Shown one piece after another: positions 1 to 5,700 of a DNA stretch of 5,700 bases; the first letter of the stretch is position 1, and each line of letters begins with the position of its first letter. The notes beneath the pieces were generated by a model that did no database searches, was not told the origin of the DNA, and was given only the letters and a program-made list of their open reading frames with translations. The translations under genes and the position numbers were made by a program. Origin of the DNA: a virus (lineage: Duplodnaviria > Heunggongvirae > Uroviricota > Caudoviricetes); the IMG/VR virus record IMGVR_UViG_2778261535_000007, positions 1-5,700 of that record; one strand, given 5' to 3'.

Positions 1-1434
1 ATGCTGTCTTTAGAAGATAGATTAAAGTCATGTGGTACAATAGAATTGTATAATGAGAAAGCTAAACAACATAATGTAATAATAAAAAACACGGAGGATG
101 CATTAAAAAAAATAATTTCAAGAATCAACACCGCTCAAGAATTAGTATCTTCAATTGAAAATAATTTCAGTATATATCGTTCTAAAAAACAGGATAAAGG
201 AAAGAAAAAGAACGCCTTCGAGCGGTTGATGAACTCTATTAAGGTAGAAAAGGAATTATTTGTTGAGGAAGTGAAATATAATAATTTTCTAAAGGGTTTA
301 AATAAAGAATATGAAGAATTTTATAAGGCGGCTTATGATTTCAAAAGAACCAAAGAGTTGCAGATTCTTGCTGGAATAAATAATTCTATAGTGCATTATT
401 ATAATGAAATAAATAAACATGATGACGATAGCGAAAAATTGAACGATATATCGTTTGTTTATGTTGAGTCTTTGAAATCATATCGATTACAACTTGATAT
501 CAACGGTGTTCCGGCTGATGCTTTTGTTAGACTGTCCGAGGGACATCTTAAATCATTAGGGCTGGCAATACTTTTAGCATTGGCGAAAAAGAAACAATCT
601 CAATTTATTGTTTTCGATGATGTAGTTAATGCTATAGATACTGAGCATAGGTCTAATATAATTAATACATTCTTAACTGATCCGTATATTAAAAGAACAC
701 AAAAGATAATCACCACTCATGATAAATTGTTCTGGGAATTGTATAGCAATCGAGAAAAGAGTTTAGGTAATGGGGAGTTCTCAAGTTTTATTCTTGAGTG
801 CTATCCTCATGGAATTCATTTTGAGGAGCGCGATATTTCCTTTGAGGGAAAAATATCAGAAAGTTTAGAACACTATGATATTCGGCAGGCGCTTATTTAC
901 TGTCGTATCTGGTTTGAGTCATTAGCAACCGAACATTGTGTAGCGTCAGAATTAAGTCTTACAGCAAGTTTTACTAACAGGGATTATGTAAAGCCAAATT
1001 TACTTAAAGTTAGTTTGGAGAAAATGTACGCGGTACTTATTGGTTCTTTAGGCGATAGATTGGAAAATATTAATGAAATTAAAAATAATTTTTTGAGCTG
1101 GGGGATACAAAATCAGGAACACCATGCTTTTAGCGAAAATAACTATAATATAATTCATTCCAAGACTAGCCAGGAAATACAGGTTATATTTGATTCGATT
1201 AGGAAGTTTAAAATACAACTATCACCAACAGTTAGTCTTGTTAGTTTGACTGATCAACTTTTATCACTAAATGATAAAATAAATGCCATTGAAAATAGAA
1301 TTCAAAGTGCCAATCCTGCAGTTCCAGTGGATGTTATTCGAAAATGGAGTAATGATAAATCTAGATTAGTGAAAGAAAAAGAAAAAGTAGATGAGTTGAA
1401 GGTCTATTGTGAAAGCTGTATCCCTCAAGTTTAA
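1..1434 (+). CDS. ABC/SMC/RecF-like ATPase, C-terminal part (5'-partial at window edge), fused to an uncharacterised ~230-aa C-terminal domain; candidate anti-phage defence protein
   Basis: Uninterrupted 477-codon ORF ending in TAA at 1432..1434. It contains an ABC signature-like motif LSEGH (nt 532..546), a Walker B-like FIVFDD (nt 604..621), a D-loop-like AID, and an H-loop-like KIITTHD (nt ~703..723). No Walker A/P-loop lies N-terminal to these within the window, so the true start is probably upstream and the ATG at position 1 probably internal. The N-terminal ~170 aa are Lys/Glu-rich and helical-looking. GC is about 28-30% (counted on the first 60 nt), against >50% in the adjacent phage genes. 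Confidence 0.7.
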   Translation: MLSLEDRLKSCGTIELYNEKAKQHNVIIKNTEDALKKIISRINTAQELVSSIENNFSIYRSKKQDKGKKKNAFERLMNSIKVEKELFVEEVKYNNFLKGLNKEYEEFYKAAYDFKRTKELQILAGINNSIVHYYNEINKHDDDSEKLNDISFVYVESLKSYRLQLDINGVPADAFVRLSEGHLKSLGLAILLALAKKKQSQFIVFDDVVNAIDTEHRSNIINTFLTDPYIKRTQKIITTHDKLFWELYSNREKSLGNGEFSSFILECYPHGIHFEERDISFEGKISESLEHYDIRQALIYCRIWFESLATEHCVASELSLTASFTNRDYVKPNLLKVSLEKMYAVLIGSLGDRLENINEIKNNFLSWGIQNQEHHAFSENNYNIIHSKTSQEIQVIFDSIRKFKIQLSPTVSLVSLTDQLLSLNDKINAIENRIQSANPAVPVDVIRKWSNDKSRLVKEKEKVDELKVYCESCIPQV

Positions 1435-1444
1435 AATTAAAATC

Positions 1445-1465
1445 AAGCCCCGTTTTTCGGGGCTT
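1445..1465. terminator. Bidirectional intrinsic terminator hairpin between convergent genes
   Basis: Perfect 8-bp GC-rich stem AAGCCCCG (1445..1452) / CGGGGCTT (1458..1465) with a TTTTT loop. On the minus-strand transcript the stem is followed by GAUUUUAAUUUUA; on the plus-strand transcript by GGUUAUAUUAAUU. It lies 10 nt after the stop of the + gene (1432..1434) and 2 nt after the stop of the - gene (1468..1470). Confidence 0.6.
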
Positions 1466-1467
1466 GG

Positions 1468-1794
1468 TTATATTAATTGATTACTGAGTAGATCCAACGC
1501 AAGTTGTTTTTCTTCCGGCTTAAGTCGGTCAATCAGGAATTTAACCAGCTTGTTGCCGGTCAGCCCGCTGGGGCTGAGGGTATGTGAAAACTGGGCGTTA
1601 AAAACAAAGGTGTGGCCGCATTCAACTTCCGTGCAGGCGCAGTATAAATCAGCCAGTTTTTTGTCTTTCCAGTCAGATTTACGAATGATGGCCGGTGAGC
1701 CGCATTCAGGACATTTAATTTTAAAAACTCGCATGTTCACCATCCCGCACGCCATTGCTAACAATGGGGATGATTTTAACTTAACTGCGCTCAT
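1468..1794 (-). CDS. Ogr/Delta-family C4 zinc-finger protein (putative late-gene transcriptional activator)
   Basis: The protein carries C-P-E-C, then 22 residues, then C-X4-C (CPECGSPAIIRKSDWKDKKLADLYCACTEVECGHTF). This C-X2-C-X22-C-X4-C spacing, with a conserved Y before the third Cys and TF after the fourth, matches P2 Ogr / P4 Delta as I recall them. Its ATG (1794..1792) overlaps the portal stop codon (ATGA). The real start could instead be an internal Met (for example MRVFKIKCPECG), giving about 88 aa. Confidence 0.7.
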   Translation of the reverse strand: MSAVKLKSSPLLAMACGMVNMRVFKIKCPECGSPAIIRKSDWKDKKLADLYCACTEVECGHTFVFNAQFSHTLSPSGLTGNKLVKFLIDRLKPEEKQLALDLLSNQLI

Positions 1795-2852
1795 TTTTCG
1801 CCCTTTTCGGTGGTAATTGTCGGGATATCCACGTCAAAAACCAGGTGCAAGTGTGCGGGGATCTCCGGGTCATTGTTGACGCCGTTCATTAGCTTGCGCT
1901 GCAAGGGGATAACTTCATCCTTGCGATAGGTTGTGCGGGCGGTTTCAGGGTTTCCCATTACCGCGCCGTTGGTCGGGATGATACCCGCCAGGCCAGCGGG
2001 GAAACGGTGGGCGGTAAAGATATCCTGTGCGGTGATCCCTTTGATGTTGGCAAATTCATCCTTTGCGCTGACTTCGCCCACTGGCATGATTTTAACCCCT
2101 TCCGGGTCGCCCTTCGGGATGTTGATAAACATATTGCGGAAGTTACCCAGCCCTTTGGACTGGGCGATCTTCTCTTTGATTTCGTTTTCCATTTCCAGCG
2201 TCAGATTGGGATCGCTGGTATAGAGAATAAAGCCCATGTGCGCCCCGTTATTGTAGTAACGGCGCCGGAAGATGGTTGCCTCACTGTTGAGTAACACCGA
2301 ATGGATGCCGCCGATATAGTCAGGCAGGCCATATACCTGCTGGCGCGGGTCGTACATTTTAAAAAAGACGATGTCTTCCGGGTCATAGATAAGCGCTGGC
2401 CCTTCCTGCAGAACAGCAAACGACCCGTCTTTTCGGCAGCGCAGATACAGCGACGGCAGCGGCATCAGGTCGATCACTTCCCCGAATACGTTACGAATTT
2501 TCAGAATCGCGACGTCACCAAATAGCATGTAATCAAAGACAGCCTGTTCGACCAGGTCAGGTGTCAGGCCGCCGCCGATGTAGCCACCGGCCACCATATT
2601 GCGCCGCGCATACAGTACCCCGCCGTGCTGGCCGTTAAGGTTCGGCAACTGGGCCAGCGCCAGGCGATCAATCGGAAGTCGCCAGTGGTCATACTCATTG
2701 TCATACCAGATATTGTGATAATCCGTGCCGGTCGTCAGGATGGGTTCGGGTTCGCCAAATGTGATCACGCTTCCGCGCCCTGGCGTGAAGGTTTCAACCT
2801 TGTTGCCGATCATGGACCTGAATTTTTTATTATTACGCTGTTTCTTTGTCAT
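1791..2852 (-). CDS. Q: Phage portal protein, P2 gpQ-like
   Basis: 353-aa ORF with conserved P2-family portal blocks as recalled (YGLPDY...LLNSEATIFRRRYY.NG.H.GFI, KG.GNFRN.F...P, EVSAKD.F.NIK). It lies immediately downstream of and overlapping the terminase ATPase gene, the same P-then-Q order as in P2. Confidence 0.93.
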   Translation of the reverse strand: MTKKQRNNKKFRSMIGNKVETFTPGRGSVITFGEPEPILTTGTDYHNIWYDNEYDHWRLPIDRLALAQLPNLNGQHGGVLYARRNMVAGGYIGGGLTPDLVEQAVFDYMLFGDVAILKIRNVFGEVIDLMPLPSLYLRCRKDGSFAVLQEGPALIYDPEDIVFFKMYDPRQQVYGLPDYIGGIHSVLLNSEATIFRRRYYNNGAHMGFILYTSDPNLTLEMENEIKEKIAQSKGLGNFRNMFINIPKGDPEGVKIMPVGEVSAKDEFANIKGITAQDIFTAHRFPAGLAGIIPTNGAVMGNPETARTTYRKDEVIPLQRKLMNGVNNDPEIPAHLHLVFDVDIPTITTEKGEK

Positions 2853-4660
2853 GCTGCTTTCCCAAAATACCAGCCCGATGGGCGGTCATATTCGTGATCG
2901 ATAGGTTCGTTAATTATGGCGTGCGAGATAGCGAAGAAAACATCTGCATGGCCGGTCGCGTCTGAACGTTCGGCAACAAATGTCAGCGCGTTGCCGCTGT
3001 TGGTTGTTGTGCGTCGGATAGCCATAAAGCTGGCCGGAATTTCGACGCGCTCTTTGTTCGTTTCGTCTACGGCGTCTTTTGCCCATTCGATGCGTTTACG
3101 CTCGACAACGTCGATCATCTTCATTACCAGACGGTTTTTGCTTTCGACGCTGTAAAGAATGGGTGTGGCTTCGCGCGGTGCAAACTTGCTGACCAGGTCA
3201 TAAACGCCCTTACCTATGCCGGTTGTATCGATCCCGATGTAAGTGATGTTAAAGCGGCGCATAAGCAGCTTTATCTGGTCGGCCTGCCAGCTGAAGTTAA
3301 AGCCCTGCCATTGCCAGACGGCCAGCACGCGGAAGCGCTCGCCGTCCTCTATGGGGGGCGCGATTAACACAAAGGTGGAGTTGTCGCCGGATCGTGACGG
3401 GTCGAAGCCTGCCCATACTTCGCGATTGCCGAAGGGCCGCGCAGCGGTCAGATCAAAGTCGCCCCATGTGGCCCGGTCCACTTCACAGCCGACAAGCGCG
3501 GAGAACTTGAACACCGCGTCCTTACTGTCAACGAACTGGCACATGTAGAGCATGGCGAACGCGGTCGGGCTGTATTTGTTGCGCAGCCGTTCAATATCGA
3601 CAAGCGTACCGAGGCCACCTTCGATAGCGTCTTCCATCGTGATGATGTAGCGCCAGATCTGGTCCGGGCAGAGAATACCCTGGCCCATTTCGCTTTCTGT
3701 CGGGAACTCCACACCTTTGCGTTTCGGGTCGTCCCCGCGCCAGGCTTCGCCAGTCCAGACCGGGTAAGCCTGGTGCGTTTTCGCGCTGGGCGTCGAAAAG
3801 TAGGTCGTCCGGTATTTGTTATGCGTTGCCATTGCGCTGGCAACTTCGTGCAGGCGCGTGAATTTCGGGATCCAGAAAACCTCATCGCCATACAGGTGGC
3901 CGTTAAAGCCCTGTGCTGTGCTGGCGTTCGTGGACAAAAAGCGCAGTATTGCGCCGTTACTGAGGCGGATATTTTTACCCGTCAGCGTCACGCCGAAATG
4001 GTTCTGGGCGATCTGGACGATGTATTCGCGGAAGATTTCCGACTGGGATCGGCTTGCAGAGAAAAAGACCTGGTTATCACCGGTAATGACAGCATCTTCG
4101 AATGCTTCCCAGGCGAAATAATAGGTCATACCCACCTGGCGGCTTTTCAGAATGAAGCGCCAGTCTTCGCCTTTATGTTCGCGGCAGTGCAGCTGGTACT
4201 CGAAGAGATGTTCCCGCGCCCAGGTGTCGAGCATTTCCGCTGTAATACCGGAAACGTCGTTTTTCTTATACCGGCGCTTTCTTTCCCCAGGTTCCCCGCC
4301 TGCGCTGCTGAGGCAGTACCCTTCACCATCATAAGCCGCTTTCTGGGCCTGAATTTCTGCCAGCTTTTCGGCGTGCTTGTTGCGCTGCGCCATGAGTTTC
4401 ACATGGTGAGCAATCAGATCGCGCAGTTCTTCCAGTTCCAGCGCTGTTTTTTTCTCGCGGCGGGAGAGCTGGTCGATACGGCGGGCGATGACATTTTCCA
4501 CCGATTCAACAGGCAGCAGTGATGCCCACTTCCCGACGTCAGCCCAGTGGTAAATTGTACGCGGTGGAATATTCAGTTCCTGCGCAATATCTTTCGGCGT
4601 CCAGCTTTTTATATAAAGCGTGCGGGCCGCTTCTTTTAATTCATCGGAATATTTAGCCAT
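2849..4660 (-). CDS. P: Terminase ATPase (large) subunit, P2 gpP-like
   Basis: 603-aa ORF of typical size and position for P2 gpP, divergent from the scaffold gene. Its stop overlaps the portal start by 4 nt. The N-terminus looks helix-turn-helix-like (TPKDIAQELNIPPRTIYHW). Confidence 0.92.
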   Translation of the reverse strand: MAKYSDELKEAARTLYIKSWTPKDIAQELNIPPRTIYHWADVGKWASLLPVESVENVIARRIDQLSRREKKTALELEELRDLIAHHVKLMAQRNKHAEKLAEIQAQKAAYDGEGYCLSSAGGEPGERKRRYKKNDVSGITAEMLDTWAREHLFEYQLHCREHKGEDWRFILKSRQVGMTYYFAWEAFEDAVITGDNQVFFSASRSQSEIFREYIVQIAQNHFGVTLTGKNIRLSNGAILRFLSTNASTAQGFNGHLYGDEVFWIPKFTRLHEVASAMATHNKYRTTYFSTPSAKTHQAYPVWTGEAWRGDDPKRKGVEFPTESEMGQGILCPDQIWRYIITMEDAIEGGLGTLVDIERLRNKYSPTAFAMLYMCQFVDSKDAVFKFSALVGCEVDRATWGDFDLTAARPFGNREVWAGFDPSRSGDNSTFVLIAPPIEDGERFRVLAVWQWQGFNFSWQADQIKLLMRRFNITYIGIDTTGIGKGVYDLVSKFAPREATPILYSVESKNRLVMKMIDVVERKRIEWAKDAVDETNKERVEIPASFMAIRRTTTNSGNALTFVAERSDATGHADVFFAISHAIINEPIDHEYDRPSGWYFGKAA

Positions 4661-4837: not shown

Positions 4838-5700
4838 ATGCCGCAACCTCATTACCGCACGGATTGGCTATGTATTGCCACATCTGGACAGGCTGTGGAC
4901 GGTCGCACCATTGAACCGCAATGGTTGATTGATGCGGCAGAAACCTACACCCGCAAAACCTACACGGCCATGATTTGGCCGCACCATCCGCAATGCGATA
5001 TCAGCGAACGTGAATTTACCTGCAATCTGGGGGAAGTGGACGCGCTGAAAGTGGAAACGGAAGGTGATGTCACGAAGTTATATGCCCAGTTAATCCCGAA
5101 TCAATTTTTAATTGAAGCCAATCGGCAGGGGCAAAAGTTATTTACGTCAGCAGAATTTGTCACTGATTTTGCAGGCAGTGGTCGTGAATATCTTTTTGGG
5201 CTGGCTGTGACGGATATTCCGGCAAGTCTGGGAACGGAAAAACTTAAATTCGTTTTAGCCGGTGAAGAAAAGGACGCCGAGCGCGGGAGTCTGGAAACAT
5301 TCAGTTTAGGAAAATTACAGACAAGTAAACCGGATAAAAAAAATTCTTTCTGGTCGCGTTTATTTTCGGCCAGTAAAGATTTTACGCCAACCCCAGAGCC
5401 AAACACTGATAAGCCCACCGAGGGCGACGGAGAAAAAATGGAAGAATTAAAAGCGCTCATTCAGCAAATGCTGGATCTGCTTAAAAGCGGTAAAGACGCC
5501 GCAACGGGTGATGCTGACACGGTTGATACCCCGGAACAGGCCGCTGATGTGGTGGCAGATGTTGCCGCCCAGATCGCTGATGCGGCCGACGAGGTGGCTG
5601 AGCTGGCGCAGGACGTTATCGAAAACCCGGAAGACGAAGTCAAAGCGGAAGAATTCAGCGCCGCCAAAGCCAACCTGGCAAAAGTCATGAAGTCATTCAA
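4838..5700 (+). CDS. O: Capsid scaffolding protein, P2 gpO-like (3'-partial, runs off the window)
   Basis: ATG at 4838 preceded by an in-frame TAA (4826..4828) and an AAAGG SD. I translated the frame by hand and found no stop through 5700 (287 codons). It is absent from the ORF track apparently only because it has no stop in the window. The Ala/Asp/Glu-rich C-terminal part and its position divergent from P match gpO. Confidence 0.85.
   Translation, partial: MPQPHYRTDWLCIATSGQAVDGRTIEPQWLIDAAETYTRKTYTAMIWPHHPQCDISEREFTCNLGEVDALKVETEGDVTKLYAQLIPNQFLIEANRQGQKLFTSAEFVTDFAGSGREYLFGLAVTDIPASLGTEKLKFVLAGEEKDAERGSLETFSLGKLQTSKPDKKNSFWSRLFSASKDFTPTPEPNTDKPTEGDGEKMEELKALIQQMLDLLKSGKDAATGDADTVDTPEQAADVVADVAAQIADAADEVAELAQDVIENPEDEVKAEEFSAAKANLAKVMKSF

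Follow-up and report, generated by a model that had tools for sequence, protein, structure and literature searches.

The Q-proximal junction of an Irrigatiovirus-like element holds no cos: lineage and a predicted cohesive-end site beside attP and int

The window (the whole stretch of DNA analysed here, 5,700 nt in length) contains no cohesive-end site (cos), neither at the 3' end of its late operon, where P2 would have one, nor elsewhere, and the missing Q-side cos is explained by lineage and not by loss. The window very probably derives from an HP1-like element within the Peduoviridae, belonging to Irrigatiovirus or very closely related to it, and not from one of the P2/186 type, with a cos situated after the last baseplate gene beside attP and int. 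A cos in this position has already been documented for HP1, HP2, phiO18P, and PV94. The present analysis only adds a location for the cos of Irrigatiovirus, a prediction of its cohesive end, and a sequence marker by which it can be found; the literature search found no account of the termini of Irrigatiovirus, SW5, or vB_YenM_324, and the paper on SW5, SW3, and SI7 is silent on genome ends.

The Q-proximal junction and the search for cos

The organization of the window is as follows (strands are those of the window as presented):

1..1434, + strand: 3' half of the cargo gene (open reading frame and Pfam SMC_N match)
1435-1467, 33 bp: gap between the cargo gene and the Ogr-like gene, containing the terminator only
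1441..1469, both strands: bidirectional intrinsic terminator hairpin (terminator scoring, folding compared with shuffles)
1468..1794, - strand: Ogr/Delta-like zinc-finger late-gene activator, last gene of the P-Q-ogr operon (Pfam Ogr_Delta, E 2.6e-17)
1483..1485: right-hand breakpoint of the variable cargo cassette, where the megablast homology to all relatives starts
1791..2852, - strand: portal, gpQ homologue (Pfam Phage_portal)
2849..4660, - strand: terminase large subunit, gpP homologue (Pfam Terminase_5, Terminase_6N, and Terminase_6C)
4838..5700, + strand: 5' part of the GPO capsid scaffold/protease gene (Pfam Phage_GPO, E 2.9e-39; synteny in SW5, RM13322, and L005)

The open reading frames of the window are full length and give strong Pfam matches, and the GC content changes from about 30% in the cargo gene (range 27-37%) to 45-57% in the phage genes. 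The GPO gene constitutes the start of the rightward late operon, the end of which is expected around 17 kb further on with the last baseplate gene and then cos. On the other side, an earlier sequence-only reading had described the P-Q-zinc-finger operon as ending 33 bp from the convergent cargo gene, with an interval consisting just of a hairpin, and both the open reading frames and the folding agree with this. The hairpin at 1441-1469 has a dG of -17.7 kcal/mol (z -5.85; 0 of 200 shuffles fold equally well), and terminator scoring is positive for it on both strands. The 33-bp interval 1435-1467 is a bidirectional terminator and contains no cos site.

In P2, the cohesive end is the 19-nt GGCGAGGCGGGGAAAGCAC at positions 1-19 of NC_001895, and the stop codon of Q is found at 187; cos is therefore situated 186 nt past the Q stop, with the cargo genes tin and old between rep and cos. 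The 19-mer and its location beyond Q had both been given in the sequence-only reading, and the record confirms the one letter for letter and the other in position. As had also been stated there, the 19-mer is missing from the 5.7-kb window: no match exists at up to 3 mismatches. For the flanks, use was made of a contig (L005) that matches the whole 5,700 nt of the window at 99.8% identity and extends for 10 kb to each side of the Ogr gene. The closest match to the P2 19-mer in the window or in these 20 kb has 6 mismatches, which is the level of shuffled sequence.

Five cos types were compared by k-mer matches against shuffles in the window and in L005. The core of the enteric cos described below and the cos sites of phiO18P, PV94, and HP1 yielded nothing above chance in either, and the best values of the enteric cos profile (nhmmer; E 28 in the window, E 3.7 in L005) are noise. 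The flank search for a P2-type cos, which had been suggested as a check, accordingly found none above chance in the 20 kb of L005, and between rep and Q of this contig no cos-like element was detected by profile or k-mer searches. The layout of P2, with cos at most around 200 bp downstream of Q, does not occur: Q is followed by ogr and then by the 33-bp gap with the terminator alone. Concerning the exact junction, its 50-mer is absent from IMG/VR and from the GTDB species-representative genomes.

Lineage of the window and position of cos in the HP1-like branch

From position 1485 onwards, the window is 98% identical to the Salmonella phages SW5, SW3, and SI7 (Peduoviridae, Irrigatiovirus), and from position 1483 onwards it matches prophages at 97% identity in 19 E. 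coli genomes out of 5,426 complete ones (megablast in both cases). The P protein shares 49% identity with that of HP1 versus 41% with that of P2, and the difference is larger for Q (52% versus 33%). SW5 and the prophage of E. coli RM13322 are collinear, gene for gene, with HP1, K139, phiO18P, and PV94, the shared order being int-cI-cox-...-rep-(cargo)-Q-P / O-N-M-L-...-sheath-tube-lysis-TMP-baseplate-fibre-orf33/34/35. The Pfam families Phage_HP1_Orf24 and HP1_ORF34 are present as well and match an HP1-like architecture. The window thus belongs to the HP1-like branch.

A regulator after Q is found as orf13 in K139 and as a 'transcriptional regulator' in phiO18P, PV94, and the Yersinia phage vB_YenM_324. 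In HP1, a tblastn match to the Ogr-like protein is situated at 10447-10632, in an unannotated reading frame that is split over two frames. Since the zinc-finger regulator follows Q across the branch, the P-Q-zinc-finger operon is a trait of the HP1-like branch.

In the records of this branch, cos is situated at the other end of the late genes. The annotation of HP1 begins with cosL at 1-9, followed by attP at 251-694 and by int at 698-1711; the other end of the record comes after orf35, the last baseplate gene. In phiO18P (NC_009542), cosL (1-16) and cosR (33970-33985) flank the int and baseplate genes, and attP is tRNA-like. For PV94, 16-nt 5' overhangs were established by means of heat-sensitive restriction fragments and run-off sequencing (PMC3986222); its record stops with the last nucleotide of the 16-mer (...CACGGAATCCGCA / CTCTTCCTCACCCGCC), to resume with TGCGCGC. 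For K139, terminally redundant ends are reported instead of cos (cited in PMC3986222), and given this report the end structure is not uniform within the HP1-like branch. The location of cos in HP1 is explicitly contrasted with that in P2 by Lavigne (2009; PMC2771037). For HP1-like Peduoviridae, the assumption that a relative of P2 has its cos beside Q is not valid (Lavigne 2009), and a Q-side junction without cos is exactly what their architecture predicts.

That the element is degenerate had been considered in the sequence-only reading; a loss of cos or of distal genes from this prophage copy, such that the absence reflects decay, is improbable. The tail end of the window's own element lies outside the retrieved sequence, and deletion derivatives occur among related cos-bearing loci (L094, L036, and L049); however, at least 24 contigs possess the identical Ogr-cargo junction, and all genes are intact in the 20 kb available for reading, which extend from int up to the lysis genes. 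In these junction-identical contigs, int, cox, rep, ogr, Q, P, O, N, M, L, sheath, tube, and lysis genes are intact, and the 98%-identical relatives are phages that were isolated and propagated, so that no sign of degeneration was found. Moreover, intact relatives are normally without cos beside Q.

If the HP1-like reading is correct, the terminase, composed of gpP (encoded in the window) and gpM (around 3 kb downstream in relatives), would act in trans on a distant cos. The circular genome would be cut about 160-190 bp past the last baseplate gene (the homologue of HP1 orf35), beside attP and int, and the virion chromosome would read cos-attP-int...rep-cargo-ogr-Q-P / O-N-M...tail-cos. Because the cut would be made beside attP and int, the Q end of the leftward late operon would come to lie inside the chromosome. 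On a circle of about 30 kb, cos would be found 20.7 kb from the Q stop in one direction and around 9 kb from ogr in the other. The Q-proximal junction would then need only a stop of transcription, which a single hairpin provides for both the P-Q-ogr operon and the convergent cargo gene.

The predicted cohesive end and its conservation

The last 400 nt and the first 323 nt of SW5 are contiguous in the RM13322 prophage (L002 40614-41334, 93.5% identity), where a non-coding stretch of about 500 nt follows the last tail gene (end at 40838). A sensitive search with this stretch revealed a core that is shared by vB_YenM_324, which belongs to another genus, and a Salmonella phage contig, in both of them past the last tail gene. 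In close relatives it reads ACGGCG / CTACACCGCACCCGCC / TGC and is situated in non-coding sequence around 165 nt past the last tail gene. In the RM13322 prophage, the 16-mer lies 167 nt past the last tail gene, at positions 41006-41021 of L002, in register with the ends of phiO18P and PV94. The following lines give the alignment, with slashes around the middle block, which is the cohesive end as annotated in phiO18P:

phiO18P: CCACGGAATCCGCG / CTCATCCGCTCCCGCC / TGCGGGC
PV94: TCACGGAATCCGCA / CTCTTCCTCACCCGCC / TGCGCGC
K139: CCACGGAATCCGCG / CTCCTCTACACCCGCC / CGCGCGG
enteric lineage: GGACGGAAACGGCG / CTACACCGCACCCGCC / TGCGCAG (L002 41006-41021)

By homology to these mapped sites, a cohesive end with the 16-nt 5' overhang CTACACCGCACCCGCC is predicted, the exact nick positions in the enteric lineage presumably corresponding to the borders of the middle block. 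The 16-mer is flanked by ACGG(A/C)..GGCG on the tail side and by TGCG on the int side. For the element of the window itself, the candidate core is predicted to be ACGGCGCTACACCGCACCCGCCTGC and is expected about 21 kb from ogr, past the 574-aa tail-end gene; this element has presumably retained the site. Searching with P0001, the representative of the tail-end protein, led to ten other prophages, with an identity of no more than 98.2% where they overlap, and not to the window's own element. In 10 of 10 prophage loci found via the tail-end protein (L137-L146), the core is situated 161 nt past that gene.

A profile built from three enteric sequences only was run with nhmmer, blind to the annotated ends, over circularised reference genomes. 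Its top match was the cos junction of phiO18P (E 1.2e-8), and the next independent match was the junction of the K139 record (E 4.7e-5). The HP1 cos was not recovered, the best match in HP1 (E 1.8) being situated elsewhere in the genome. Since the HP1 cos is too diverged for the profile, the link to HP1 consists of synteny plus the intermediates phiO18P, PV94, and K139, and sequence homology of the enteric core to the HP1 cos is not claimed. The sequence-only reading had also allowed for a divergent cos. This holds with regard to the type, which is that of HP1, phiO18P, and PV94 and not that of P2, but not with regard to the place, which that reading had not taken into account: in this lineage the site follows the last tail gene, beside attP and int and around 20.7 kb away from Q.

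Among the known systems, phiO18P (Bielevirus) shares with the enteric lineage the gene order, an Ogr-like regulator after Q, and a cos that is bordered by the last baseplate gene on one side and by the tRNA-like attP and int on the other. The 16-mers (CTCATCCGCTCCCGCC in phiO18P, CTACACCGCACCCGCC in the enteric lineage) are identical at 12 of 16 positions, and the flanks match with ACGGAA..CGCG before and TGCG after, followed by AAATTTTTTGCAAAAG versus AAAAATTTTGCAAAAG. The two differ in their hosts (Aeromonadales versus Enterobacterales) and in the sequence of the overhang, the enteric ends being predicted ones. PV94 (Vulnificusvirus) possesses cos at the same position, and its restart at TGCGCGC is in register with the enteric core, whereas its repeats on the int side are more diverged and K139, a close relative of PV94, is the phage reported with another end structure. 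HP1 (Hpunavirus) is collinear as well, with cos about 250 bp from attP and 190 bp past orf35 and with ACGGAAA repeats on the side of the tail genes; unlike the enteric lineage, it is AT-rich, its annotated cohesive end comprises 9 nt, and its cos lies beyond detection by the profile.

P2, 186, and P4 (Peduovirus) have in common with the enteric lineage the terminase family (gpP/gpM) and 5' overhangs, and the flanks are similar, with GGCG before, TGCGC after, and the motif TTTTTCAG around 25 nt further on. They differ in sequence and position: the 19-nt end of P2, to which no match exists in the window, lies close to the Q stop, beside tin and old, and the enteric site about 20.7 kb away from Q. 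The flanks suggest that HP1-type and P2 overhangs have the same orientation. That the HP1-type overhang might be an inverted P2 overhang (GGCGGGTGCGGTGTAG, reverse complement, versus GGCGAGGCGGGG...) was considered as well; the similarity is too short, and no claim is made.

The core is strongly conserved. IMG/VR has at least 120 contigs with the exact 25-mer ACGGCRCTACACCGCACCCGCCTGC, and among species-representative genomes it occurs in 70 stretches, which come from more than 20 genera of Enterobacterales; such invariance is unusual for non-coding DNA. Of 190 loci with the 25-mer among the matches listed, 134 exhibit an orf35-like gene directly upstream on the same strand, 14 are of satellite type, and one has a portal or terminase gene within 1.5 kb. 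In satellite-like islands devoid of tail, portal, and terminase genes, the core has been retained together with around 175 nt on its int side, and nothing on its tail side. Correspondingly, an alignment of 3 satellites and 7 phages contains 84 of 150 columns conserved in at least 8 of the 10 sequences downstream of the core versus 13 of 101 upstream. Such a footprint would be expected of a packaging signal shared by helper and satellite, by analogy with P2 and P4, which share theirs.

The conserved int side contains repeats of TTTCAG/CTGAAA, at 3.3 per 200 nt versus 0.31 upstream (103 distinct loci). In the Irrigatiovirus lineage, seven copies of TTTGCA/TGCAAA are found in their place, and the array spans about 175 nt. 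These repeats probably constitute a cosB-like array for binding of the small terminase subunit, the specificity of which would have changed in Irrigatiovirus.

Concerning the phage assemblies, the genomes of SW5, SW3, and SI7 differ in nothing but their start points (100% identity; Nextera XT libraries, assembler Ray). The contig of SW5 breaks inside the predicted 16-mer (...GGCGCTACACCGC / GCACCCGCC...), and SW3 and SI7 are short of 7 nt (CTACACC) inside the 16-mer relative to the prophages. Anomalies confined to the 16-mer fit physical DNA ends at this site without proving them. The start of the SW5 GenBank record coincides with the conserved core, but was dropped as evidence for cos, as the one genome was deposited with three different start points.

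An alternative would be a lineage without cos, using headful packaging or possessing terminally redundant ends as reported for K139, whose terminase is closely related. This is unlikely, to about the same degree as a degenerate copy. In two of the three identical phage assemblies, the sequence continues across the putative junction; but it is exactly inside the 16-mer that the assembly anomalies are situated, and the K139 record itself breaks 22 nt from the homologue of the 16-mer. Furthermore, the 16-mer and its flanks are in register with the cohesive ends of phiO18P (annotated) and PV94 (experimental), and a 25-mer that is invariant across a bacterial order and kept by satellites argues for a cos of the HP1 type.

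The cargo slot, a satellite-like island, and two architectures

The full cargo gene is found in L005 at 10361-13186. It encodes an ATPase of 941 aa (AAA_23/SMC_N), is convergent with the phage late operon, and gives weak PADLOC matches to mad3, LmuB, and AbiLi. Positions 1-1483 of the window had no match among the relatives (SW5, SW3, and SI7; 5,426 complete E. coli genomes), and in these collections the cargo gene is therefore specific to the window's element. It is followed in L005 by a gap of 340 bp and the GPA replication gene. The variable cassette reaches from around 55 nt past the rep stop to around 16 nt inside the 3' end of ogr (its last five codons or so), corresponding to 6858-10016 of the reverse complement of L005 (L005rc). 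Apart from the ATPase of the window, this slot between rep and ogr contains a methylase and a small ORF in SW5, a 925-aa protein in RM13322, and nothing in vB_YenM_324. A second variable slot exists between cos and attP, with AbiH in RM13322 and small ORFs in SW5, PV94, and vB_YenM_324.

The sequence-only reading had also proposed that cos might lie just beyond the cargo gene, which would place the cargo between Q and cos like tin and old in P2; in spite of the order old-cos-Q in P2 and of the 340 bp of non-coding sequence available between rep and the cargo gene, this is not supported and is the least probable of the explanations, as neither the gap nor the whole of L005 contains an above-chance match to the five cos types or the profile, as the rep-proximal homology of relatives ends around 55 nt past the rep stop with no conserved non-coding block, and as vB_YenM_324 possesses a rep-ogr gap of 296 bp without cargo and its cos core 20 kb off.

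The gpA-gpQ defence locus of P2-like prophages was described by Rousset (2022) as proximal to cos, and cohesive ends were speculated to promote exchange there (PMC9122126; see also PMC13586616). In the lineage studied here, the rep-Q hotspot persists with cos 9 kb and 21 kb away around the circle.

The enteric cos core occurs in 516 of the 5,426 complete E. coli genomes, and the phage in 19. Around 430 of the core matches in E. coli fall into a single identity band of short, core-only matches. Roughly 8% of the complete E. coli genomes, ST131 strains among them, carry an 11-kb satellite-like island at argW, the one example examined being that of JJ2434. In JJ2434, this island is situated at the tRNA-Arg gene and comprises int, two genes of the sce7725/7726 family, the cos core, an Ogr-like gene, a DUF927 primase, an Icd/Ash-like gene, a gene of 286 aa without known function, and an HTH regulator. 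In addition, it carries a full-length major capsid gene of the P2 family, 42-50% identical to the capsids of HP1-like phages; terminase, portal, and tail genes are missing. This gene content suggests a capsid-substituting, P4-like satellite of HP1-like helpers; no description of the island was found in a literature search. The combined reading that the rep-Q hotspot is a trait of the convergent, terminator-bounded junction and not of cos, and that the argW island is such a satellite, is put forward tentatively, at slightly less than even probability.

'P2-like' prophages of Enterobacterales comprise two architectures, and seeking cos beside the portal gene wrongly flags the HP1-like ones as defective. 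For this group and its satellites, the 25-mer described above provides a simple cos marker. Finally, the Irrigatiovirus lineage constitutes a natural control for the proposal of cos-driven exchange at the gpA-gpQ hotspot (Rousset 2022).

Two cargo sites in the HP1-like lineage and an Ogr-like sequence in HP1

The cos-adjacent cargo site of the HP1-like lineage is situated on the attP side and is distinct from the variable site between the replication gene and ogr/portal Q (rep-Q slot). This second slot, located between cos and attP/int, was compared in four genomes and exhibits the following contents:

L002 41334-42520: cos-attP slot of the E. coli RM13322 prophage, AbiH
L001 1-657: cos-attP slot of Salmonella phage SW5, two small ORFs
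L012 27900-29180: cos-attP slot of Yersinia phage vB_YenM_324, other small ORFs
L136 1-940: cos-attP slot of Vibrio phage PV94, other small ORFs

The rep-Q slot of the window is occupied by a single gene, which is found at full length in a 20-kb contig 99.8% identical to the window (L005):

Window 1-1434 (full gene L005 10361-13186, minus strand in L005): cargo gene, one 941-aa AAA_23/SMC_N ATPase

Upstream of this gene lies a 340-bp region of its own. The protein exhibits weak matches only to the LmuB (Lamassu), mad3 and AbiLi models, and the gene is regarded as an uncharacterised candidate defence gene. It is located in the slot where P2 has old/tin.

Between terminator T31 and Q of Haemophilus phage HP1, an unannotated sequence is present:

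HP1 NC_001697 (L004) 10417-10709, minus strand: Ogr/Delta-like sequence

It is spread over two reading frames, with the CxxC part at 10539-10709 and the CxxxxC part at 10417-10644, and constitutes either a frameshifted pseudogene or a sequence error dating from 1996.

The cos site and its int-side flank

The genomes of Salmonella phages SW5 (L001), SW3 (L010) and SI7 (L011) are 100% identical and differ in their deposited start points. The ends of the SW5 record fall inside the predicted 16-nt cohesive end, and at this same place 7 nt (CTACACC) are missing relative to the prophages in SW3 (209-240) and SI7 (20466-20500). Break and gap are probably artefacts that arose during assembly where the DNA physically ends, such that the deposited sequences of SW3 and SI7 likely lack 7 nt at cos.

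Concerning the int-side flank of cos, the E. coli RM13322 prophage (L002 41022-41200) was compared with L013, L012 and IMG/VR loci. Most phages and satellites possess TTTCAG/CTGAAA repeats in this flank; Irrigatiovirus and the E. coli prophages instead have TTTGCA/TGCAAA at all copies, with 7 per 200 nt and 0 upstream. The motif comparison points to a protein-binding motif that has switched in a co-ordinated manner, which possibly reflects small-terminase specificity.

Unusual cos-bearing loci and an island at tRNA-Arg

In L141 (GCA_010797475.1 AAOPWH010000008.1, 10001-21725), the orf35-like tail-end gene and cos are immediately succeeded by the int, cox and rep genes of a related element, an arrangement that represents either a tandem pair of HP1-like prophages or a circular junction that entered the assembly. 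The exact enterobacterial cos 25-mer is also found in two Firmicutes assemblies, each time on a very short contig (L177, Vagococcus sp., 2,014 nt; L217, Bacillales MAG, 2,687 nt), most likely through contamination of both. A few cos-bearing IMG/VR loci have atypical neighbours (L036, L049, L056, L094, L024): in some, a portal or terminase gene lies 1-7 kb upstream without tail genes, and in L024, 98 nt separate the end of a gpA-like gene from the downstream cos core. Such loci probably represent deletion derivatives or additional satellite types.

An HP1-type cos core is likewise present within the following island, with which L031, L045, L046, L061, L066 and L076 are grouped:

E. coli JJ2434 NZ_CP013835.1 2690467-2701075 (L148): ~11-kb island at tRNA-Arg, flanked by yfdC and dsdC

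It encodes a P4-type integrase, two sce7725/sce7726-family genes, an Ogr/Delta-like gene, a DUF927 primase-helicase, an Icd/Ash-like gene, a 286-aa unknown gene and an HTH regulator, as well as its own full-length P2-family major capsid protein with 42-50% identity to those of HP1-like phages. Its gene content includes no terminase, portal or tail genes, and neither annotation nor Pfam revealed sid or psu. Among 5,426 complete E. coli genomes, the cos core is found in 516, whereas a matching phage is found in just 19. The ~11-kb island has the appearance of a P4-like satellite with HP1-like phages as its helpers.
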